From Gemmatimonadota bacterium (GTDB lineage Bacteria > Gemmatimonadota > Gemmatimonadetes > Palauibacterales > Palauibacteraceae): a stretch of DNA of 64,000 bases. A model generated the notes under the pieces. It did not search any database. It saw only the letters and a program-made list of their open reading frames with translations, and was not told the origin of the DNA. The stretch is from assembly GCA_046484665.1 (NCBI GenBank), contig JAWOIN010000069.1:7114-71113 (forward strand), given 5' to 3'. How positions within the stretch are numbered: position 1 is the first letter of the stretch; every line of letters starts with the position of its first letter. The position numbers and the translations under genes were made by a program. Positions 3,077 to 27,473 of this stretch are shown piece by piece.

Positions 3077-3150
3077 GCCCGGGTCCGGCCCGGGCCGGCC
3101 CGGTCCCGGCGCGTTGACCTCGCGATGACGGCCGCGCCCCGCGACGGGGC

Positions 3151-4151
3151 GTGGTTGACCCGAACTCGTTCCGCCGTTCCGCCGCCCCGCGCGACGAAAC
3201 CCGCGCACTCGACGCGATGCGGAGGGAGATCCGCGCCCGGCAGATGAGCCTGCTGACCGAGGAGGCCTACGTCTCCTGGGCGCGGCGCTACCTCCGCTTT
3301 CACGACGGCCGCGATCCGCGCGAACTCGGCGGCGAGGGAATCGCCGCCTTCCTCACCCACCTCGCCGTTCGCCGAAACGTCGCGCCGTCCACCCAGAGCC
3401 ATGCCTCGAGCGCCCTGCTCTTCCTGTATCGCGAGGTGCTCGGGACCGAGGTGAACCCACCGAAGGGCGTGGTGCGCCCGATGGCGCCGCGCCGGCTTCC
3501 CGTCGTGCTCACCCCCTCGGAGGTCCGGGCCGTGCTCGGTCAGATCCGGGGGGCGCACCGGCTCGCCGCGACCCTCCTGCACGGGAGCGGGCTCCGCCTG
3601 CTCGAGTGTCTCCGGCTGCGCGTCAAGGACGTCGACTTCGAGCGCCGCGAGATCCTCGTGCGGGCCGGCAAAGGCGACCGGGACCGCGTCACCATGCTGC
3701 CCGACAGCGCCCGTACCGCGCTGGGTCGGCACCTGCGCCGCGTGCAAGAGCAGCACGAGCGCGATCTCGCCGCCGGCGCCGGATGGGTAGTCCTGCCCCG
3801 CGCGCTCACGCTCAAGTACCCGAACGCCGGCCGCGAGTGGGCCTGGCAGTGGGTGTTTCCCGCCACACGGATCCACGCGGGGTCGGCTACCGGGCGGCGC
3901 TTCCGATACCACCTCCACGAGTCCGCCGTCCAGCGCGCCGTCAAGGAGGCCGTGCAGCGGAGCGCGTCCCGAAGAGGGCCACATGCCACACCTTCCGGCA
4001 CTCCTTCGCCACCCACCTGCTCGAGAGCGGCTACGACATCCGGACCGTCCAGGAGCTGCTCCGGCACCGTAGCGTCCGCACCACGATGGTCTACACCCAC
4101 GTCCTGAACCGCGGCGGCCTCGGTGTCCGCAGTCCCGCCGACGCGTTCTGA
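3151..4151 (+). pseudogene. intI: integron integrase IntI (tyrosine recombinase), interrupted by apparent 1-nt frameshift near 3961-3970
   Basis: Frame 1 ORF 3151..4107 carries [32 protein letters not shown] and the IntI-specific insert [21 protein letters not shown]; frame 0 ORF 3606..4151 carries [36 protein letters not shown]. The junction reads ..AVQRSASRR in one frame and ..[15 protein letters not shown] in the other. Confidence 0.85.
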
Positions 4152-4390
4152 CCGTCGGGCGGGAAGCCGATCCCCGCCCGCCCCCTCTCCCGCGTCCAGC
4201 CTCCTGCGACTTCTCATGCCCCTGCGGCGTCCCGAAGTGGCGCCCTGCGCGAACCGCGCCTAGATTTTTCCACGCGCCCCACATCACCGAATTGCGTGCG
4301 GTTCGGCACATCGCCCGCACCGCTCGCAAGTCAACATCCCGGCCCGGGCTCCGTGCATCAGCCGCGTACCGTGCGGGAGGGGGCTGGGGT

Positions 4391-4416
4391 GTTGGGATGT
4401 CTGCTAGGAGTTAGAT
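4391..4416 (+). other. candidate attI / first cassette junction (GTTAGAT at 4410-4416, GTTGGGA at 4391-4397) in lower-GC spacer downstream of intI
   Basis: GTTRRRY-type box in the only lower-GC stretch between intI stop and first cassette ORF; position inferred, not proven. Confidence 0.3.
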
Positions 4417-4444
4417 GGCTATCAAACTCTGGGGCTAGACGGGA

Positions 4445-4833: not shown

Positions 4834-4919
4834 ATCTAACACACGCCTGGAGCTGACGCGGAGGTGACTGTGGGCGGACGAATGATCGTGTCGCGCAGCT
4901 CAGGCGCTCACCGTCAGGT
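4834..4919 (+). repeat. attC site 1 (R'' ATCTAAC 4834-4840 ... R' GTCAGGT 4913-4919)
   Basis: Shares inner core GCCTGGAGCTGACGCG ... CGCGCAGCTCAGGCG with other attCs; imperfect inverted repeat with bulged bases. Confidence 0.7.
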
Positions 4920-4936: not shown

Positions 4937-5260
4937 CTACTTGGCCGGGACCTCGCGGGACCGTTTGCGACGAGGCCGTACGACGTCGAGCACCGCATCC
5001 GGGTGTCGCGCTGCTACCCGCAGCAGCACGCGCGCCGGCCCCCGGGGGGTGCGCCGGCCCTGCTCCCAGTTCTGGAGCGTGCGTACGCTGATTCCGAGCA
5101 ACGAGGCGAACTTCTCTTGCGACAGCCCGTACGCCTCCCGAATCGCGGTCACGTCCTTCTCCGGAAGCTCGAAGGTCCGGACTGCCGCCTCCTTCTCTTT
5201 CAGGATCCGGCCGCCCTGGAGCACACTGGCCTCGAGCTCCGCGAACAGGTCCTTCTTCAC
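4937..5260 (-). CDS. higA: HigA-2-like antitoxin, XRE-family HTH (GTG start)
   Basis: ..AIREAYGLSQEKFASLLGISVRTLQNWEQGRRTPRGPARVLL.. HTH; starts 1 nt after overlapping toxin stop; real start GTG at 5260, not the 230-aa track ORF. Confidence 0.8.
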   Translation of the reverse strand: MKKDLFAELEASVLQGGRILKEKEAAVRTFELPEKDVTAIREAYGLSQEKFASLLGISVRTLQNWEQGRRTPRGPARVLLRVAARHPDAVLDVVRPRRKRSREVPAK

Positions 5261-5574
5261 CTGTATTCCTCCTCGACGATCCGGTGCAGGACCTTCTTCT
5301 GCTCCGGGCTCAGATCGCTGCGCTCGTTCTTGACGAAGACCATGAGCATGAGGATCGTCTCGTGAGACCCGGCCCAGTAGTAAATGACGCGTACGCCGCC
5401 GCGCTTGCCCCTGCCCGGGGTACGCCAGCGGATCTTCCGCAGGCCGCCCGCACCCGGAATCAGGCTTCCGGCCTCCGGGTCGGCGGCGAGACGTAGTTGC
5501 AGAAGCCGGTAGCTCTCCGGGTCCAGCAGCTCCTGGACGCGTCGGGAGAAGACCTCCGTCTCCTGAATCAGCAC
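5257..5574 (-). CDS. higB: HigB-2-like toxin (RelE/ParE superfamily, Gp49-like)
   Basis: GAGGLRKIRWRTPGRGKRGGVRVIYYW...ILMLMVFVKNERSDLSPEQKKVL matches HigB-2 signature GTGGLRKIR..GKGKRGG.R.IYY; toxin-first operon order. Confidence 0.85.
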   Translation of the reverse strand: MLIQETEVFSRRVQELLDPESYRLLQLRLAADPEAGSLIPGAGGLRKIRWRTPGRGKRGGVRVIYYWAGSHETILMLMVFVKNERSDLSPEQKKVLHRIVEEEYR

Positions 5575-9573: not shown

Positions 9574-9878
9574 CGACTCCCCGCATGGATAAGGACGAAG
9601 CCAGGGCAATACTCGCCGAGTGCCTCGCTTCGTACCGGGCTATGACCTATCCAGAGCTCGCGTTGCGAGTCGACACCGTCGAGACCGCTGAGATCCGGGC
9701 TCCGTCCGGAGTGCAGTATCAGCTTGAAGTCCAGTTCTTCTGGGATTCCAAGCCGAATCACGAGGTCAGAGTTATCGGTTCGGTCGACGACGGGGGTTGG
9801 CGGGCTTTTGTTCCCCTGTCCGACGACTTCATCCTGGCGCCGGATGGCACCTTCGTAGGCGAGCAGCCAGCAGATTGA
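9570..9878 (+). CDS. hypothetical protein (cassette 8), ATG created inside R' box GTTATGC
   Basis: ORF track; no recognisable motif; coding GC3 bias. Confidence 0.45.
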   Translation: MPTPRMDKDEARAILAECLASYRAMTYPELALRVDTVETAEIRAPSGVQYQLEVQFFWDSKPNHEVRVIGSVDDGGWRAFVPLSDDFILAPDGTFVGEQPAD

Positions 9879-9879
9879 C

Positions 9880-9967
9880 AAGCGCTGGCAGCTGACGCGG
9901 ACTGCAGTTGTGGCGTCAGACGCGCCGGCGATCGTGGCTGCGCAGCGGAAGCGCAAGACCGTCAGTC
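9880..9967 (+). repeat. attC site 8, degenerate (GCTGGCAGCTGACGCGG ... GCTGCGCAGCGG ... R' GTCAGTC 9961-9967)
   Basis: Retains GCAGCTGACGCGG / CGCAGCGG halves of the family core; R'' not clear. Confidence 0.4.
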
Positions 9968-9980
9968 GGCTTGAGCGGAC

Positions 9981-10769
9981 ATGATGGACGCGGGAACCTG
10001 CGATCGGTGGTATCAGACGCCGCGCGGCCGGTGGATCGGGCAACGCGAGGTAGCGTTGCTCCTTGGAGAGCTGCAACTTCATCCGGGCGAATCGCTGCTC
10101 GATGTAGCGTGTGGCACCGGCTTCTTCACGCGTGCTCTTGCGTCCGCGATGGGAGCGCCGGTCACCGGCGTCGATATCAGCCCAGAATGCGTGGCGTATG
10201 CGCGTCGTCGAGACACGGACAAGGTGTCCTACGAGGTCGCCGACGCACGTGCCCTGCCTTACGGAGCCGCGAGCTTCGACGTCGTCGTGTCGATCGCGGC
10301 ACTGTGCTTAATCGAAGAGGAACGCGCCGCTGTCCGCGAGATGTGTCGCGTCGCGCGCCGCCGGGTAGCCATCGGTCTACTGAATCGCCGGAGCCTCCTT
10401 TGGCTCCGGAAGGGTAGGAACGGTGGCCGCGGAGGCTACCGCGGTGCTCGCTGGCACACGACCGGCGAGGCCGCGGACCTGCTCAAGGGTCTGCCGGTGC
10501 AGCTTTCTCGGGTGCGGACCGCCATACACCTTCCGGGTGACGGGCGAATCGCGCGGGTCATGGAGCGCCTATGGCCGCCGTGGCTCCACACCGGCGCGTT
10601 CATGCTCGTGGTGGCAGACGTTGCTGCGGTTACCGATGCGCCACCTGACAGCAGCGTGCAGCGGACGGCGCTTCGCGCTGTCGCTGATGCTGAGCGTCAG
10701 GCGGCGTACCTTGAAATGGTACGAGTCCGTATTCGAACCGCGACGACGCTGCCACCCGGGTCAGTGTGA
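9981..10769 (+). CDS. class I SAM-dependent methyltransferase
   Basis: [16 protein letters not shown]...VTGVDIS...FDVVVS motifs I-III. Confidence 0.75.
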
Positions 10770-10779
10770 GGAGGCGTCA

Positions 10780-11271
10780 ATGAGTCCGAAGAAGGCCACG
10801 CAGAAATCCGGCGAGAGCACCACCGCGATCAACAGGAAGTCCAAGGGATTCACGGACGAGGAACGAGCTGCAATGAAGGAGCGCGCCCAGGAGCTGAAGG
10901 CGGAAGCAAGCGGCGGCGCGCGCGCGAGCAAGAACAGGGCGGACGGCGAAAGAGACGTGCTCGCGAAGATCGCCGAGATGCGGGAACCGGATCGCGCCAT
11001 GGCCAAGCGGTTTCATGCTGTCATCCTGGCCAGCGCGCCGACGCTCTCGCCGAACACCTGGTACGGGATGCCCGCGTACGCCAAGGGCGGCAAGGTCGTC
11101 TGCTTCTTCCAAAGCGCGCAGAAGTTCAAATCGAGGTATGCGACGTTCGGCTTCAGTGACGAGGCGAATCTCGACGAAGGCGCCATGTGGCCGACCTCTT
11201 TCGCACTGAAGGACTTGACCGCCGCCGAAGAGGCGAGGATCGGCGCTCTCGTGAGGAGAGCGGTGAGCTGA
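10780..11271 (+). CDS. DUF1801 (YdhG-like) domain protein
   Basis: [32 protein letters not shown] typical DUF1801 core; ATG 10780 preceded by GAGGAGG. Confidence 0.7.
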
Positions 11272-11542
11272 GGAGCGATCTCGGCATCGGGCCCCGACCA
11301 GGGGCCTTCGGTAGCTCCGACAGACCCGGCGATATCATTCTCACTGCTGAAAACGAGGATTCGGCATGGGCACGCCAGCCCATGCAATCGGTCGAGTAGC
11401 GTGAGGCAATCGGGAGAGCCGGCGTCACGGCACCGCCCGAAGTGGCGATGGCCGACCAGGTCCATCCGGTTCCGGCCTCACGGGTCCACGCTTTGGTCTG
11501 GCTTTGGCGGGAGCAGCGAGCGCCACCAGGGCAGTGAGCGCC

Positions 11543-11609
11543 GCCTGACCGGCGACTTCACCTGCCGACGGCCGCCCGGCAACCGCAGCTCCTTCGAGCA
11601 CAGGTGAGC
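11543..11609 (+). repeat. degenerate attC remnant (R''-like GCCTGAC ... CAGCTCCTTCGAGCACAGGTGAGCGG)
   Basis: Resembles 5' and 3' halves of array attCs (compare CAGCTCAGGCGCTCACCGTTAGGCGG). Confidence 0.3.
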
Positions 11610-11656
11610 GGCCCCGCTCGAAAGCCCCATTGCATCAGATGGGAGGACGCGCAGCG

Positions 11657-12169
11657 ATGGATTCGTCGGCACTCGAGTTCCTGCTTCGGTTCAATATCTG
11701 GGCGAACCGGCGTTTGTTGGATGCTATCGAGAGCCTGTCGGGAAACGCGGATCTGACTCCGATCCGAGACATGGTCGCGCACATTGTCGCGGCAGAGTGG
11801 ATCTGGATGGAACGGCTGGAGGGCGTCAGCCCGGGCGAAGTTCCGGCCTGGGTCGACGCAGAGGGACTGGAGCCCCTCCGGGAGCGGTTGGCGGTGGTCG
11901 AGACACGCAGAGCTGCCTTTCTGGAGACTCTGGATGAGAGCGGGACAAGGCGTGTGGTGGAGTTTCGGCTCCTCAACGGCAGTAGCGGAACGGCGGAAGT
12001 CTGGCAGCTGATGGTCCACGTCATCAATCACTCCACATATCATCGTGGGCAGCTGGCGAGACTGTTGCGCGAGGCCGGGGTGACCCCACCCACCACAGAC
12101 CTGATCTCCTTCTGTCCGGAGGGAGGCCAGTATCGGAGTCGAGAGTCGCGACGATCGGACTGCGAATGA
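11657..12169 (+). CDS. DinB-family protein (DinB_2)
   Basis: FNIWANRRLLDAIESL ... HVINHSTYHRGQLARLLREAG characteristic DinB C-terminus. Confidence 0.7.
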   Translation: MDSSALEFLLRFNIWANRRLLDAIESLSGNADLTPIRDMVAHIVAAEWIWMERLEGVSPGEVPAWVDAEGLEPLRERLAVVETRRAAFLETLDESGTRRVVEFRLLNGSSGTAEVWQLMVHVINHSTYHRGQLARLLREAGVTPPTTDLISFCPEGGQYRSRESRRSDCE

Positions 12170-12395
12170 TCGTCGTCCTGAATGGACCGCCTCGCATCGG
12201 AGAGGGGACGCTCGCAGAAGCGCTCGCCGAAAACATCGAGAAGTGCGCCACCTGCCGGGGGTCTGCGGCAGCAGAGCAGGAGTCGCGGGTCCGGAGCCGT
12301 TCGCCTTGCAGCCCGCCGCTCCGGGCAGGCATCATGCTCACGCAGCGGAACGGCATAGTCGGCAGATACGCGACAGCAGGGGAGGTCACTGCCGA

Positions 12396-12746
12396 ATGAA
12401 GAGCTACCTCCTTGTGCTGAACGAGGGCCCCTACGGAAACGAGCGTTCGTACAACGCGCTGCGTTTCGCCGCCGCGCTCCGCAAGCAGCCCGACGCGCTC
12501 GTGCGCGTCTTCCTGCTCGGCGAGGCCGCGTTCTGCGCCCTGAAGAACCAGGAAACGCCCCAAGGAATCTACAATATCGGACGGATGCTCCGGATCCTGA
12601 CGACTCACGGCGCCGTGGCCACGTGAGGCTCCTGCGCCAAGGCCCGCGGGATCGGGCCCGAGCAGCTCCTGGAGAAAGTGGAACTCGCGAGCATGGAGCA
12701 GCTGGCCGGCTGGGCTCACGAGAGCGATCAGGTTCTCGTGTTCTGA
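12396..12746 (+). CDS. DsrE/DsrF/YchN-like protein with in-frame TGA (12624-12626); candidate selenoprotein or nonsense pseudogene
   Basis: MKSYLLVLNEGPYGNERSYNALRFAAAL..HGAVAT-TGA-GSCAKARGIGPEQLLEKVELASMEQLAGWAHESDQVLVF; family-conserved C-terminus continues in same frame after TGA; GGAGG 8 nt upstream of ATG. Confidence 0.6.
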
Positions 12747-12756
12747 TTTCACCACG

Positions 12757-13743
12757 ATGTCCGGCACGGGACGCGAGCTGGCGCTCACCGCTTCATGGAG
12801 CCCCGGGCCCTTCGCATCCGATGCCTTCCATCCGCCGTTGCCAGCATGCAGCGGATTCTCCGCGCTCCCGGTGTCCACGGGAGTCGAGATGGAGCTCGAC
12901 ATGACGGAGGATTGCAAGCGAGCATCGGATCTGGCAGGTCGCTCGCGCGGGGGCTGGAAGCTGGCCCTCGGCGAGCTCGCCATCGTATCGCTCGGCGTCC
13001 TGATCGCTCTCTGGGCCGACCAGGCGATCCAGGCCCGCCAGGAGGCCGCCAGGGAGGTCGGTTACCTCGAGCGCCTCCAGACGGATGTGCGCGCGGACAT
13101 CCGCTCCCTGCGATTCAGCGCCGACCAGGCGCGGAACCGGCTCGCGATCACTCGGCAGGTCGATGCCTGGCTCCACGACCCGGACGGAAGGCCCGATCCC
13201 GACTCACTGGTCTTGAGCGCGCACTTCGCAGGCGTCACGTTCCCGCCCACGATCTCGACGTTCACGATCGACGAGCTGAGGTCCACGGGTGACCTCGGCC
13301 TCCTGCGGAATCAGGCGCTCAAGAGACAGATCGCCGACTACTACAACCAGATCGGCCTGCAGATCGACCGGTGGATCGCCTGGGGTGACGAGGGGCTCAC
13401 CGAGACGTACTTCCGCGAGCTGGCGTTCATCGTGGACCCTGAGCTCAGGATTCGGGCGGGCACGTTCGACCCGGCGCTGATGCAGCGCTTCCTGAGCGCC
13501 TCCGGCGGAGACGCGCCGTCCAGATACGCCGAGATCCAGGGAGCCGCACCGGAGATCGGAGCCACGCTCGCCGACGCGGACCGGATCCTCGGTCGGATGC
13601 GGGCGCGTCCGAACTACGAGGGCTATCTCCGCGACAGCATGTACTGGGCGCATCTGTCGGCCCAGCTGCTGGACGGCGTCGTCCTCACCGCCGAGGAGCT
13701 GGAGGCGACGATCGCGGAGGAGCTCGAGGCTCTCGGCCGATAG
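12757..13743 (+). CDS. hypothetical membrane-anchored protein, unknown function (start uncertain, possibly 12888/12900)
   Basis: ORF track; one TM (LALGELAIVSLGVLIALWA) then soluble domain; strong GC3 bias. Confidence 0.45.
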   Translation: MSGTGRELALTASWSPGPFASDAFHPPLPACSGFSALPVSTGVEMELDMTEDCKRASDLAGRSRGGWKLALGELAIVSLGVLIALWADQAIQARQEAAREVGYLERLQTDVRADIRSLRFSADQARNRLAITRQVDAWLHDPDGRPDPDSLVLSAHFAGVTFPPTISTFTIDELRSTGDLGLLRNQALKRQIADYYNQIGLQIDRWIAWGDEGLTETYFRELAFIVDPELRIRAGTFDPALMQRFLSASGGDAPSRYAEIQGAAPEIGATLADADRILGRMRARPNYEGYLRDSMYWAHLSAQLLDGVVLTAEELEATIAEELEALGR

Positions 13744-13790
13744 CGCCGCGAGCTCACCGATCACGGCCCCCTGTTCGCGCGAGCCGACCC

Positions 13791-14552
13791 GTGAGCCGAG
13801 AACGACGCGCCGTCCTCCCGGAGATGCCGCGACGGGCATGCGAGCGGCTTCGAGACGGGCTCGTGGAGATTCTGGGGCCGGACCTCGTCGGGCTCTGGGC
13901 GTACGGCGCCGAGACCCAGCCAGATCGCCCGGCACGCCTCGGGGATCTCGACGTCCACGCGGTCTTCGCGCGCCCGCCCGCGCCCGGCGTCGCCCGCGCG
14001 ATCGCAGCGCTGCAGTCCCGCTCCGCGCGTGAGTTCGGCGTCGAGTGGGACGCCTGGTACATCGCGGAGCACGACGCCCGGAGCGTAACGCCGCCCCGGC
14101 ACGTGCTGCAGCCACACCTCGTCGACGGCGCGTGGGCGCTGCACCGGGCCCACTGGTTGGCAGGGGCTTTCGTTTCCCTCCACGGCGCCGAGCCCCCGGA
14201 GCTCGTGCCGCCGCCTTCCTGGCCCGAGCTGCTGGATGCCCTGTGCCGGGAGCTCGCCTTCATCGCGAGCCTGCTCGGACGCGGGAGGGCTGGGACCGCC
14301 GAGATCGCCTACTGCGTGTGCAACGCGTGCCGGGTCCTCTACAGCGTGAAGCACCGGGACGTGGTCGTCTCGAAGCGGGCCGCCTCGAGCTGGGCTCTCG
14401 GGAGCGCCCCGGCCGCCTGGCGGCAGGCGATCGAAGCCGCGGTGCGGGTCTACGACGACGCGGAGGTCGGCGGTGATGATGCGGTACTCAGGTCGTCCGC
14501 CGCAGAAATCGTCACGGCGGTGGCGGAGCGGCTGTCCCGCGAGACGAGCTGA
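13791..14552 (+). CDS. nucleotidyltransferase-domain + DUF4111 protein (ANT(3'')/ANT(9) aminoglycoside adenylyltransferase-like)
   Basis: LVGLWAYGAETQPDRPARLGDLDVHAVF (NTase GS..D.D) and C-terminal ..VVSKRAASSWAL.. DUF4111-like motif. Confidence 0.6.
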   Translation: MSRERRAVLPEMPRRACERLRDGLVEILGPDLVGLWAYGAETQPDRPARLGDLDVHAVFARPPAPGVARAIAALQSRSAREFGVEWDAWYIAEHDARSVTPPRHVLQPHLVDGAWALHRAHWLAGAFVSLHGAEPPELVPPPSWPELLDALCRELAFIASLLGRGRAGTAEIAYCVCNACRVLYSVKHRDVVVSKRAASSWALGSAPAAWRQAIEAAVRVYDDAEVGGDDAVLRSSAAEIVTAVAERLSRETS

Positions 14553-14556
14553 GGAG

Positions 14557-15030
14557 TCAGCCTCGGCCGCCGAGCCGATTCCGCCTCCCGTCGACATTCG
14601 ACTCGATCCGCGAGCCGTCGGCGACGAGCGACGCCGGTTCCTCGGCCCGTCGCGCCAGCGCCAGCGAGCCCGCCGCGCAGGCCGCGCTCGCCAGCCCGAA
14701 CACGGCTCCGAGCCCGAGCAGGGCCGCGCCCCCGAGGCCCGCGGACAGGACGAAGACCGCCGCGAACAGCACGCCTCCGACCGCTCCCCACGCCGCGAAG
14801 CGCGGAATCGACATCTGCTCGAAGGTTCTCCGGCGCCCGACGAACCCCAGGACCCCGGAGAAGGACACGCCCGCGAGGAAGCCGAGCGCGCCGAATCCGA
14901 GCGGAAACGGGACGTCGGCGGCGTCGGGACCGACCACCAGGAGCAGGGCCATGCCCGCGCCGAACCAGGCCAGCGCCCAGGCCAGGCCTATCCCGAACGC
15001 GCCGCGGATCCGTCGCAGCCACTTCCTCAT
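14557..15030 (-). CDS. hypothetical polytopic membrane protein
   Basis: ORF track; Gly/Ala-rich hydrophobic helices. Confidence 0.4.
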   Translation of the reverse strand: MRKWLRRIRGAFGIGLAWALAWFGAGMALLLVVGPDAADVPFPLGFGALGFLAGVSFSGVLGFVGRRRTFEQMSIPRFAAWGAVGGVLFAAVFVLSAGLGGAALLGLGAVFGLASAACAAGSLALARRAEEPASLVADGSRIESNVDGRRNRLGGRG

Positions 15031-23352: not shown

Positions 23353-23540
23353 GTCCGGGGCGCCACGGTCGGACGGTTCGACTTCGCCCTGGCACCGGAT
23401 GGGGCGTTCTCGGGTGAGCAGCCCGACTCGCGGGGGGAGTTGACGCCGGGAACAGCTCGGAGCGAAGAAGGAGCAGATGAGCGCGCGTGTCGCCAGCCGG
23501 CGCACGTGCCCTGCATACCGAGCAGCAGGAGGACCCGACC

Positions 23541-24314: not shown

Positions 24315-25532
24315 CTACCGGAACAGCGGGAACACCCGGTCGAGAAGGTCGTCCCGAAGCGACGCGAGGATCGCGCCCGCGTCCGGCCGGTCCCGGTCCG
24401 TGCCGCGATCCGTGTTGAGGACCGCGATCGCGGCCGCGCCCGTCGCCGGATCGACGTAGAAGAACGACTGGAACGCCCGCTGGTCGCCGCTGTGCCCGAC
24501 CACGCGCACCGGACCGCGCTCGAGCAGGAAGAACACGAGGCCGATCGCCTCGCGGGTCCCGGCTGCCGGCACCGGTGTCGCCGCGTCCGTCGCGGACGGG
24601 ACCTCGAGCTGCTCCCGCCACATCTCCTCGAGCGACTGGCGCCGGAGCACGACCTCGTACTCCTCCCGCACGGCGGGATCGCCCGCGAGGAACGCAAGGT
24701 ACCTCGCCATGTCGGGGATCGGAGCGTTGAGCCCGCTGTTCGACGCCGTGATTCCGGTGTCGAAGTCGAGCCCGTGCGCGATCCGCTCGCCGTCGCGCAC
24801 GGTGTAGCTGTTCGAGCGGTACGGCAGCAGGTGGACCGGCGTCACGTCGAAGTAGCTGCGGTGCATGCCGAGCGGCTTCAGGATGTTCTTGTCGACGTAG
24901 ACCTCGTAGTCGTCGCCGGTGAGCCGCTCGATGATCCGGCCCAGGAAGATGATGCCGGGATTCGAGTAGGCGTGGCGGCTGCCGGGCTCGAACAGGATCT
25001 CGGTATACGGCAGCATCGCCACGATCTGTGACCAGTTCGTGGGCTCGAACGGCTGCCAGGCCTCGCTCCCGCCCCACGGCCACGTGGCCGCGCGGAACCC
25101 TGCCGAGTGCGCCATCAGGTGCCGGATCGTGACCCCGTCCATCGGGCCGTACGGGTTATGCACGACGCGCAGCTCGGGCAGGTACCTCACCACGGGGTCG
25201 TCCAGCGACAGCAGGCCGCGGTCGCGCAGCTGCATGATTGCGATGCCCGTGAACGTCTTCGTGATCGACGCCCAGTGGAAGATCGTGTTCTCTTCCACGC
25301 GCCGGTCCGCCTCGAGATCCGCGAAGCCGTACAGCTCAGTCGCGAGCGTCTCGTCCCGGAGGAAGAACCACAGGGAGCCGCCCGCCACCCCCTGCTCATC
25401 GAGCGTGCGGTGATAGCGATCGGCGACCTCGTGCCAGGCCGCATCGAAGACGCCCGGCTCCTGGGCATCCGCGGCCTTCGGGACACAGAACGCCAGCGCC
25501 GTTGCCATGGTCACCACGATCCGGGATGCGAC
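24315..25532 (-). CDS. serine hydrolase, beta-lactamase family (class C-like); start uncertain
   Basis: SxxK motif HWASITKTF, YSN motif AYSNPG; N-terminal signal-like segment. Confidence 0.7.
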   Translation of the reverse strand, partial: VASRIVVTMATALAFCVPKAADAQEPGVFDAAWHEVADRYHRTLDEQGVAGGSLWFFLRDETLATELYGFADLEADRRVEENTIFHWASITKTFTGIAIMQLRDRGLLSLDDPVVRYLPELRVVHNPYGPMDGVTIRHLMAHSAGFRAATWPWGGSEAWQPFEPTNWSQIVAMLPYTEILFEPGSRHAYSNPGIIFLGRIIERLTGDDYEVYVDKNILKPLGMHRSYFDVTPVHLLPYRSNSYTVRDGERIAHGLDFDTGITASNSGLNAPIPDMARYLAFLAGDPAVREEYEVVLRRQSLEEMWREQLEVPSATDAATPVPAAGTREAIGLVFFLLERGPVRVVGHSGDQRAFQSFFYVDPATGAAAIAVLNTDRGTDRDRPDAGAILASLRDDLLDRVFPLFR

Positions 25533-26779: not shown

Positions 26780-27320
26780 GGGATCCGGATCCGGAACGAG
26801 GCGGACCGCGACGCGGCCATCATCGGCGAGGTGACCGCCGCCGCCTTCGCGCCGCTGGAGATGAGCGACCAGACGGAGCCCTACATCATCGAGGCGCTTC
26901 GCTCCGCCGGGGCCCTGGCCGTGTCGCTCGTCGCAGAGTTCGAGGGCCGCGTCGTCGGGCATATCGCCTTCTCTCGTGACGATCTCCGACGGCACACGGG
27001 ATTGGTACGGACTCGGTCCGGTCTCCGTGCTGCCGGCCTGGCAGCGACAGGGCATCGGCAGGGCGTTGATCCGAGAAGAGCTGTCCCGTCTGGAGGGCCT
27101 GGGCGCCCGGGGCTGCTGTCTCGTCGGACACCCGCAATACTATCGGCAGTTCGGGTTCGAGAACGTCCCCGGGCTCGCCGTCCCGGGCGTGCCGGACGAG
27201 GTGTTCTTCGCGCTCTCGTTCGAGGGCCGCCTCCCGCGGGGCGAGGTCGCGTTCCACGAGGGATTCCGGGCGACGGGCCCGCAGGCGCGCGGAAGGCACG
27301 AGCCCGCGCCGCGTTCCTGA
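26780..27320 (+). pseudogene. GNAT N-acetyltransferase (YhbS-like), frameshifted near 26970-26980 in a CT repeat
   Basis: N-terminal half IRIRNEADRDAAIIGEVTAAAFAPLE..VVGHIAFS in one frame, C-terminal half VTISDGTRDWYGLGPVSVLPAWQRQGIGRALIRE in another. Confidence 0.55.
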
Positions 27321-27473
27321 CTCCCCCGGTTCGTATGCCACAGAGCGCCGGCGCGGGCCCGCATCCGGCTTCCTCGTTTCGCGCCCGCGGGCAATGCTGG
27401 ACCGGCTTCCCGTCTCGGCGCGCGAGGGGCCAGTGCGCCAGGCGGCCGGACCACCGCCCTCACCGGAGCGGAC

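Follow-up and report, generated by a model that had tools for sequence, protein, structure and literature searches.

Probable erosion of attC sites at the integrase-distal end of a sedentary chromosomal integron in Gemmatimonadota

Extent of the cassette array

Where does the cassette array of a chromosomal integron end if genes beyond its last clear attC site may once have been cassettes themselves? This question was raised by a 64,000-nt stretch of DNA from a Gemmatimonadota bacterium (assembly GCA_046484665.1, contig JAWOIN010000069.1; the whole stretch is hereinafter referred to as the window, and coordinates are those of the window unless another contig is named). The first 15 kb of the window contains an integron, in which a tyrosine-recombinase gene (~3150-4151, +) is followed by short same-strand genes with repeats of attC layout between them. 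An initial annotation had let the last clear attC end at 9968 and had described a methyltransferase, a DUF1801, a DinB-family and a DsrE-like gene farther on as cassettes separated by decayed attC remnants, in an array that might extend past the DsrE-like gene. Comparative evidence bore this out: the genes are cassettes with decaying attCs, and the array continues past the DsrE-like gene. We consider it probable (roughly 85%) that a sedentary chromosomal integron has its old, integrase-distal end at 9968 to ~13770 and that the attCs there are eroding.

Nine clear attCs up to 9969 formed a single alignable family. Its R'' is gCCTAAC or CCTGAC, its R' is GTTAGGC or GTCAGGC, and its L''/L' stem has two bulged bases. 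A covariance model (hereinafter R1) was built from these nine sites and run over the whole window with filters off at E<=10. An exact-pattern scan for the attC family gave matches almost only in metagenome-assembled genomes (MAGs) of Gemmatimonadota. The attC pattern yielded a comparison set of 123 loci (444 kb) from genomes and metagenomes, and contigs carrying homologs of the tail proteins were located in addition (L numbers below).

3151-4151 (+): intI, with a 1-nt deletion at ~3963
9871-9969 (+): attC 9, scored by R1 at 67.5 bits, though the site is part of the model

The intI ortholog of a close relative (L131) scored 425 bits against TIGR02249 (integron integrase; cut-off 265), and intI of the window was ~95% identical to it in DNA. 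Intact IntI in L131 and L124 has 333 amino acids; the deletion at ~3963 shifts the frame in the window and puts the catalytic C-terminus out of frame, as a result of either real pseudogenization or an assembly error. GC content fell from 72-79% to 60-67% at ~4200 and recovered only at ~13400-13700. The GC content of third codon positions (GC3) was 0.83-0.96 in core genes of the window and 0.68-0.88 in clear cassettes; in the tail it was 0.71 for the methyltransferase gene, 0.83 for DUF1801, 0.73 for DinB, 0.85 for the DsrE-like gene, and 0.87-0.88 for the two genes farther on (orf284 and a nucleotidyltransferase gene). Judged by this GC and GC3 profile, the foreign-looking composition extends well beyond 9968.

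Intact attC 10 and its loss in sister strains

9981-10769 (+): S-adenosylmethionine-dependent methyltransferase gene (cassette 10); Pfam Methyltransf_11, 1.4e-21
10641-10704 (+): attC 10, intact; R'' ACCTGAC, R' GTCAGGC, 60 nt end to end

The placement of the last clear attC at 9968 was wrong, since an intact attC lies at 10641-10704. A relaxed-threshold covariance scan, suggested with the initial annotation, recovered this site, while giving no match at E<=10 at two proposed remnants, 11543-11611 and 12776-12796. attC 10 scored 27.9 bits (E=1.4e-5) against R1, which had been built without it. It had the best hairpin energy density in 3-16 kb, with a DNA fold z-score of -3.1 and a single bulged hairpin as its minimum free energy (MFE) structure. 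Its core variant GAC/GTC also occurs in attC 5 and attC 9, and the site is 87.5% identical to attCs in two unrelated arrays (L090 and L032) whose ends are the canonical CTAAC/GTTAGC.

Close relatives at 94-97% DNA identity were available as L124 and L131 (both from sample 3300076801), L129 (3300074328), and the fragments L125 (3300075659) and L130 (3300075567), with the same left and right flanks as the window. attC 10 was present in L131 (27.9 bits) and absent from L124, L125, L129, and L130 by an exact 66-nt deletion corresponding to window positions 10629-10694. The deletion and its polymorphism are directly observed: the presence or absence of attC 10 is attC loss caught within a population. 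Slippage across the hairpin, at the GCG microhomology found on both edges, would explain the deletion. Excision by IntI was also considered and set aside, as the junction lies one base off the G|TT position and slippage at the GCG microhomology fits better.

The methyltransferase open reading frame (ORF) has no stop codon before attC 10; it reads through the site and stops only after 65 nt of the following cassette. The 66-nt deletion in the sister strains is in frame, and the methyltransferase ORF survives there.

DUF1801 cassette and the element behind it

10780-11271 (+): DUF1801/YdhG-like gene (cassette 11); Pfam DUF1801, weak match at 8.4e-4, below the curated cut-off
11319-11466 (+): probable attC-derived element with degraded stem, by homology to a hairpin element of L148

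In two contigs (L148 and L149), the DUF1801 gene is preceded by an attC (L148 1282-1406, R1 15.3 bits) ending in GTTAGAC, and the gene is read as a cassette in both. Window 10727-11466 aligned to L148 and L149 at 80.8% identity over 743 columns, and the homology ended at 11466. Directly after the stop codon, L148 carries a 150-nt imperfect hairpin (z=-3.1 on the top strand, -3.9 on the bottom strand) with the ends GATTGAT and GTCCATC. A single-sequence profile of this element matched window 11329-11466 (E=4e-20), and the window copy folded weakly (z=-1.6 and -1.25). The segment 11319-11466 is thus probably the much-altered attC of the DUF1801 cassette.

The DUF1801 protein of the window has more than 8000 homologs at ~80-85% identity; a protein 100% identical to it is attributed to a Gemmatimonadota MAG. 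The contexts of one homolog, P0125 (L142-L147), were uninformative, none of them lying in an integron. Directly 3' of the DUF1801 stop codon, at 11277-11321, a 45-nt GC-rich hairpin (GGGCCCCGACCAGGGGCC inside GGAGC...GCTCC) was observed that has no counterpart in L148 and could be inserted sequence or a terminator-like structure.

DinB cassette and the class F attC

11657-12169 (+): DinB-family gene (cassette 12); Pfam DinB, 3.9e-21
12246-12372 (+): "class F" attC of the DinB cassette, long and decayed; R'' ACCTGCC 12250-12256, R' GGCAGAT 12361-12367
12166-12245 (+): possible N-terminal remnant of a P-loop kinase (start of "orf77"); MIVVLNGPPRIGEGT resembles a Walker A N-terminus

In a blastn search of the tail against the library, 12259-12350 matched ~120-nt attCs of another sequence class (L065, L094, and L038; E=1.4e-7). 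A hidden Markov model (HMM) built only from these three attCs matched window 12274-12371 (E=1.6e-13), with an end-to-end alignment. Moreover, L140 has an intact class F attC, with R' GTTAGAC, immediately upstream of its own copy of the DsrE-like cassette. In the copy shared by the window and the sister strains, the AAC/GTT triplets are altered to GCC/GGC and the stem has become weaker. This copy gave no R1 match at E<=10, and its MFE structure was not an attC hairpin (z=-0.6), whereas intact relatives folded as expected. On these grounds 12246-12372, which the initial annotation had not listed, was classed as a decayed attC, not as a functional one.

It is on this attC-derived flanking sequence in the window that the putative cassette status of DinB is based. 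The DinB homolog in L124 and L125 is 98% identical. The gene is intact in the window, and in L129 (5083-5598) and L131 (10860-11390) it was called as two pieces (53 + 115 or 120 amino acids), which suggests that it is becoming a pseudogene in some strains.

The ORF called "orf77" (12166-12399) is no gene, because what follows its first part is the decayed class F attC. That first part (~26 codons, 12166-12245) might be a remnant of a P-loop kinase gene, with sub-threshold matches to Pfam CPT (E=0.055) and RuvB_N (0.06). When the spacers were read in six frames for gene fragments, only this weak P-loop N-terminus was recognisable.

DsrE-like cassette and the remnant at 12759-12796

12396-12746 (+): DsrE-like gene (cassette 13), with in-frame TGA at 12624-12626; Pfam DsrE, 9.3e-25 with TGA read as Cys
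12759-12796 (+): decayed attC of the DsrE-like cassette; GTCCGGC (R'' remnant), stem arm GAGCTGGCGC, spacer TCACC, mutated R' GCTTCAT

One DsrE-like homolog was found on at least 15 contigs with varying neighbours. It appears there as a protein of 76 residues, because gene callers stop at the in-frame TGA. This TGA falls at the position of the invariant Cys of CGxC when Cys-containing homologs are aligned, the ORF stays in frame, and the UGA is conserved in L124, L131, and L132-L141; the triplet at 12624-12626 is probably a selenocysteine codon. A DsrE-like selenoprotein family is known (PMC1088965). Downstream of the UGA, a conserved hairpin resembling a selenocysteine insertion sequence was found, which was not better than shuffled sequence (z=+0.6), and no tRNA-Sec was found in the window. 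In L132-L141 the homologs are cassettes delimited by attCs, which flank the gene on both sides in L132-L139. Hence the gene is probably a selenoprotein gene carried as a mobile integron cassette.

The intact attC of the DsrE-like cassette in L132-L139 (GTCTGAC...CAGCTCAGGCTCACCGTTGGAG; R1 45-52 bits) reads GTCTGAC ACGCGCTTTAAGCTGACGCG ... GCGCGCAGCTCAGGCTCACC GTTGGAG. Its window counterpart reads GTCCGGC ACG GGACGCGAGCTGGCGCTCACC GCTTCAT: both ends are recognisable, ~50 nt of the middle is deleted, and both cores are mutated. The surviving stem arm is L'' or L', which are indistinguishable here. A full R''-L''-loop-L'-R' architecture is not present at 12759-12796, and the fold z-score was +0.9. 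Alignment with the sister strains stopped at 12771 (L131) and 12780 (L124). On the other side, ACCGCTTCATGGAGC of the window aligned with ACCGTTAGATGGAGC of L014 and GAGTTAGATGAGC of L069, which is the start of the orf284 cassette. The segment 12776-12796 is accordingly attC-derived, visible by homology only.

A minus-strand class F match at 12743-12780 (E=0.027) was borderline and was set aside, since it overlaps the remnant already explained at 12759-12796.

orf284 and the outer limit of the array

12889-13743 (+): orf284, membrane-anchored protein (cassette 14); ~80% amino acid identity to L014, L069, and L041
13743-13766 (+): possible last remnant of the orf284 attC (L'-R' half), GCGCCGCGAGCTCACCGATCACGG
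13791-14552 (+): AadA_C-type nucleotidyltransferase gene; Pfam AadA_C, 5e-9; GC3 0.87, core-like; no attC
14557-15030 (-): membrane protein gene of the conserved chromosomal flank, where the array has its outer limit

An intact attC follows orf284 in L014 (72.5 bits) and L069 (63.8 bits). The orf284 cassette starts with G|TTAGATGGAGC in these two loci, and the window has GCTTCATGGAGC at the aligned position. In L041, orf284 abuts the same conserved flank as in the window, without an attC. By eye, GCGCCGCGAGCTCACCGATCACGG at 13743-13766 is similar to GCGCAGCTCAGGCGCTGACCGTCCAC of L014 once 8 nt are taken as deleted between two GCTCA repeats, and it may be the last piece of the orf284 attC. The nucleotidyltransferase gene was absent at the matching position in L124, L131, and L041. 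Synteny resumes at 14616 for L124 and L131, inside the 3' end of the minus-strand membrane-protein gene, and at 14557 for L041. The array runs, in eroded form, to ~13770, and perhaps to 14556.

The comparison of gene content with other integrons, likewise suggested with the initial annotation, supported the cassette origin of the tail: DUF1801, the DsrE-like gene, and orf284 are attC-bounded elsewhere.

Other contigs gave further observations. L069 has no attC before orf284 at 700-790, where two GTTAGAT repeats (CACGTTAGATCG and GAGTTAGATGAGC) stand near the 3' end of a tRNA-gene-like sequence (by eye); the repeats could mark an attI or a place of secondary insertion. L041 carries a bare CCCCGTTGGAG after a beta-lactamase-like gene (1870-1895, -), and L124 carries GACGCGGAGGGTGACGGT at 12395-12440, similar to the L''-loop part of attC 7, after its last cassette gene; both look like traces of decayed attCs.

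Sequence statistics of the tail

11543-11611 (+): first "remnant" of the initial annotation, unsupported; no R1 match, half-site 0.1 bits, fold z=-0.4

All strings quoted in the initial annotation were found in the window: GCCTGAC at 11543-11549, CAGCTCCTTCGAGCACAGGTGAGCGG at 11586-11611, GAGCTGGCGCTCACCGCTTCA at 12775-12795, and the 11-mer CGAATGATCGT of attC 1 at both 4879-4889 and 12163-12173. The three similarities drawn from them (11543-11609, 12776-12796, and the 11-mer) were nevertheless not above chance by sequence statistics alone. At 11542-11560 half-site HMMs reached 0.1 bits (E=110), and at 12780-12790 they reached 0.2 bits (E=160). Outside the attCs, 47 11-mers on the + strand were shared with the attC set; five of them fell within 9970-12800, where 2.3 would be expected (p~0.14), and this interval had no 12-mer in common with the set. 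A gapped alignment to the 3' half consensus scored 26 at ~12761 against a background maximum of 27, and 11543-11611 was not among the top 45. The proposed remnants at 11543-11609 and at 12163 (the 11-mer) stayed at background level, with no comparative support, and were given up. The one at ~12770-12795 was at chance level by these statistics but is retained, as 12776-12796, on its homology to the intact attC of the DsrE-like cassette.

The segment 11543-11611 is kept without a synteny break in L124, L131, and L129, and lies in a 190-nt stretch past 11466 with no homolog outside the strain group. Inverted ends TGCCGAC/GTCGGCA at 11563-11671 were rejected as an attC, as they overlap the DinB coding sequence and form no continuous stem (z=-0.5). 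Weak R1 matches at 23419-23528, 27286-27371, and 24783-24875 were judged false positives, their R boxes failing to pair. Folding z-scores were also discarded as a test for attCs; they had little power here, several undoubted attCs having z near 0 in this GC-rich DNA. An Rfam scan of 9900-14700 returned nothing at E<=1.

These results could be taken to mean that the array ends at its last intact attC (10704), that the genes downstream are ordinary chromosomal or island genes, and that the attC-like strings are chance matches in GC-rich DNA. Such a reading agrees with the absence of R1 matches past 10704 at E<=10, the background level of half-site and k-mer statistics, the lack of significant folding in the spacers, and the non-integron contexts of the DinB homologs at 59% identity. 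It does not account for the class F attC homology (E=1.6e-13), for the boundaries of the DsrE-like, orf284, and DUF1801 cassettes, which can be aligned to the window, for a probable attC past the DsrE-like gene in L124, or for the cassette-like GC3 of the methyltransferase and DinB genes. We hold it to be very improbable, and keep to the view that the tail is an eroded part of the array.

Strain comparison

The cassettes next to intI differed among strains, and a distal block was common to all, consisting of c9, the methyltransferase, DUF1801, DinB, and DsrE-like genes; c7 and c8 were also shared with the window in L124 and L129. Proximal turnover together with a shared distal block is the pattern expected if the array grows at attI. 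The probable attC past the DsrE-like gene in L124 lies at 11708-11809 of that contig (20.2 bits), where the genes are different.

Identity to the sister strains fell from ~97% to ~85% inside the DsrE-like gene, near 12485, and the sequences were unalignable further on until 14616. In the diverged part of the DsrE-like gene, synonymous divergence (pS) was ~0.3 and the ratio of non-synonymous to synonymous divergence (pN/pS) was ~0.27. Since both breakpoints lie in coding sequence and not in attC cores, 12485-14615 is read as a recombinant haplotype that was exchanged by homologous recombination and not by the integrase.

The distal sites might also be unusual but active attCs, so that the tail would be a working part of the array. 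The R'' and R' of the class F copy remain complementary at 6/7 positions, GAC/GTC core triplet variants are common among the clearly intact attCs of the array, and the region between the DsrE-like gene and the flank varies among strains. Against this, 12361-12367 and 12790-12796 no longer have the conserved T of the G|TT cleavage site, and stems are interrupted or missing, with no attC-type fold predicted. The window, L124, L125, L129, and L131 also agree in gene order from the methyltransferase through the DsrE-like gene, while their proximal cassettes change. The strain difference itself, running from ~12485 in the DsrE-like coding sequence to 14616 in the flank gene, has its limits off the core sites, which indicates homologous recombination. 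Activity of these sites is accordingly regarded as improbable.

As the source is apparently a MAG and the intI frameshift is a single-base deletion, a typical kind of assembly error, the mosaic tail could in principle have arisen in assembly, by collapse or misjoining of strain variants. The same gene order and the same decayed sites were, however, recovered on independent contigs from different samples (L124, L131, L125, L129, and L130), and orf284 stands beside the same flank independently in L041. An artefact of this kind is hardly credible.

Several points weigh against the interpretation of the tail as the eroded end of the array. The element at 11319-11466 was not recognised by R1, so that its assignment draws on position, hairpin, and ends. 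The segment 13743-13766 was not significant by itself in the gapped half-site alignment, and the candidate cassette status of the nucleotidyltransferase gene is likewise a weak point. The closest DinB homologs outside the strain group (L126-L128) are those without an integron context. Inactivity of the altered sites is something that we infer from their sequence, and the residual complementarity of the class F R''/R' would allow some activity. Moreover, the recombinant segment 12485-14615 begins within the DsrE-like gene and takes in its 3' part as well as orf284 and the nucleotidyltransferase gene; its structure derives partly from exchange and not from decay in place. Finally, the source of the window is a metagenome assembly.

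Proposed course of attC loss

Under the interpretation preferred here, each tail gene would have entered as a cassette with its own attC, and the distal cassettes would be the oldest, because new cassettes enter at attI beside intI. attCs would then be lost by two routes, namely deletions that take all of the hairpin (attC 10 in the sister strains) or its middle (12759-12796), and base substitutions in R'' and R', the core sites at which the integrase cleaves. The sites can be placed in a graded series, in which attC 10 is intact, the probable DUF1801 attC has a degraded stem, and the DinB attC is of full length with altered triplets and a weakened stem; the DsrE-like attC lacks ~50 nt of its middle and has mutated cores, and the orf284 attC is almost gone. 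Homology to intact sites, the deletions, and the core-site substitutions were observed; the direction of change and the loss of recombination are what the series would imply. Eroded sites of this kind could not form the folded bottom-strand substrate or offer a cleavage triplet. The altered sites are presumably inactive, and if they are unusable, their cassettes would be frozen as ordinary chromosomal genes.

We put forward only tentatively that mobile cassettes turn into fixed chromosomal genes at the distal end, and that this route runs one way. Old cassettes would then normally end in attC erosion, of which every stage would be visible here, with polymorphism persisting in a wild Gemmatimonadota population and a DsrE-like selenoprotein cassette among the genes being fixed.

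Comparison with known integrons

The locus resembles sedentary chromosomal integrons, such as those of Vibrio and Xanthomonas, in having an integrase gene followed by a long same-strand array of promoterless cassettes, attCs that are largely homogeneous and specific to the host lineage, toxin-antitoxin cassettes, and proximal cassettes that vary among strains while distal ones are shared. It differs from them in its Gemmatimonadota host, in having intI upstream of and co-oriented with the cassettes rather than divergent, and in containing at least five attC sequence classes in one short array.

In class 1 integrons, partial or total attC loss gives rise to fused cassettes (PMC4670013). Here too, neighbouring cassettes become one immobile unit by attC deletion: the 66-nt deletion has fused the methyltransferase cassette to that of DUF1801 in L124, L125, L129, and L130, and in the window the DsrE-like cassette is fused to that of orf284. 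Unlike the class 1 examples, the present ones are chromosomal and non-clinical, successive attCs are at different stages, and one event is still polymorphic.

Decay of the integrase is common, as known from CALIN elements (attC clusters without an integron-integrase) and intI pseudogenes (Cury et al., 2016, PMC4889954; Nemergut et al., 2008, PMC2426708). The frameshifted intI of the window, next to intact genes in sister strains, would, if the frameshift is real, follow the pattern of independent integrase decay. Unlike in CALIN and degraded integrons, the attC cluster here still stands beside a nearly intact intI; attC decay was not quantified in those surveys. The locus is a clear, fresh example of known integron ageing and no novel system, and it leaves the accepted picture of integrons unchanged.

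Automated integron annotation would probably end this array at ~10.7 kb, the last scorable attC, with the consequence that four or five former cassettes would be counted as ordinary chromosome. Comparative data can recover the limits of an array where covariance models fail, and give a concrete view of how cassettes lose mobility. Further, attCs that are intact, carry triplet mutations, have weakened stems, or have internal deletions occur side by side at this locus, as natural material for probing the tolerance of the integrase. It would also document a probable selenoprotein gene travelling as an integron cassette.

Other observations on the locus

Exact-sequence look-ups of the methyltransferase, DUF1801, and DinB proteins returned no record. 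intI is upstream of and co-oriented with the cassettes in the window (3151-4440), L124 (1-700), and L131 (5414-6700), and attI follows the 3' end of intI; we take this layout to be that of the less common "inverted integrase" group. The second cassette of the window (4937-5574, -) contains two overlapping ORFs opposite to the array strand, an arrangement typical of toxin-antitoxin cassettes with their own promoter.

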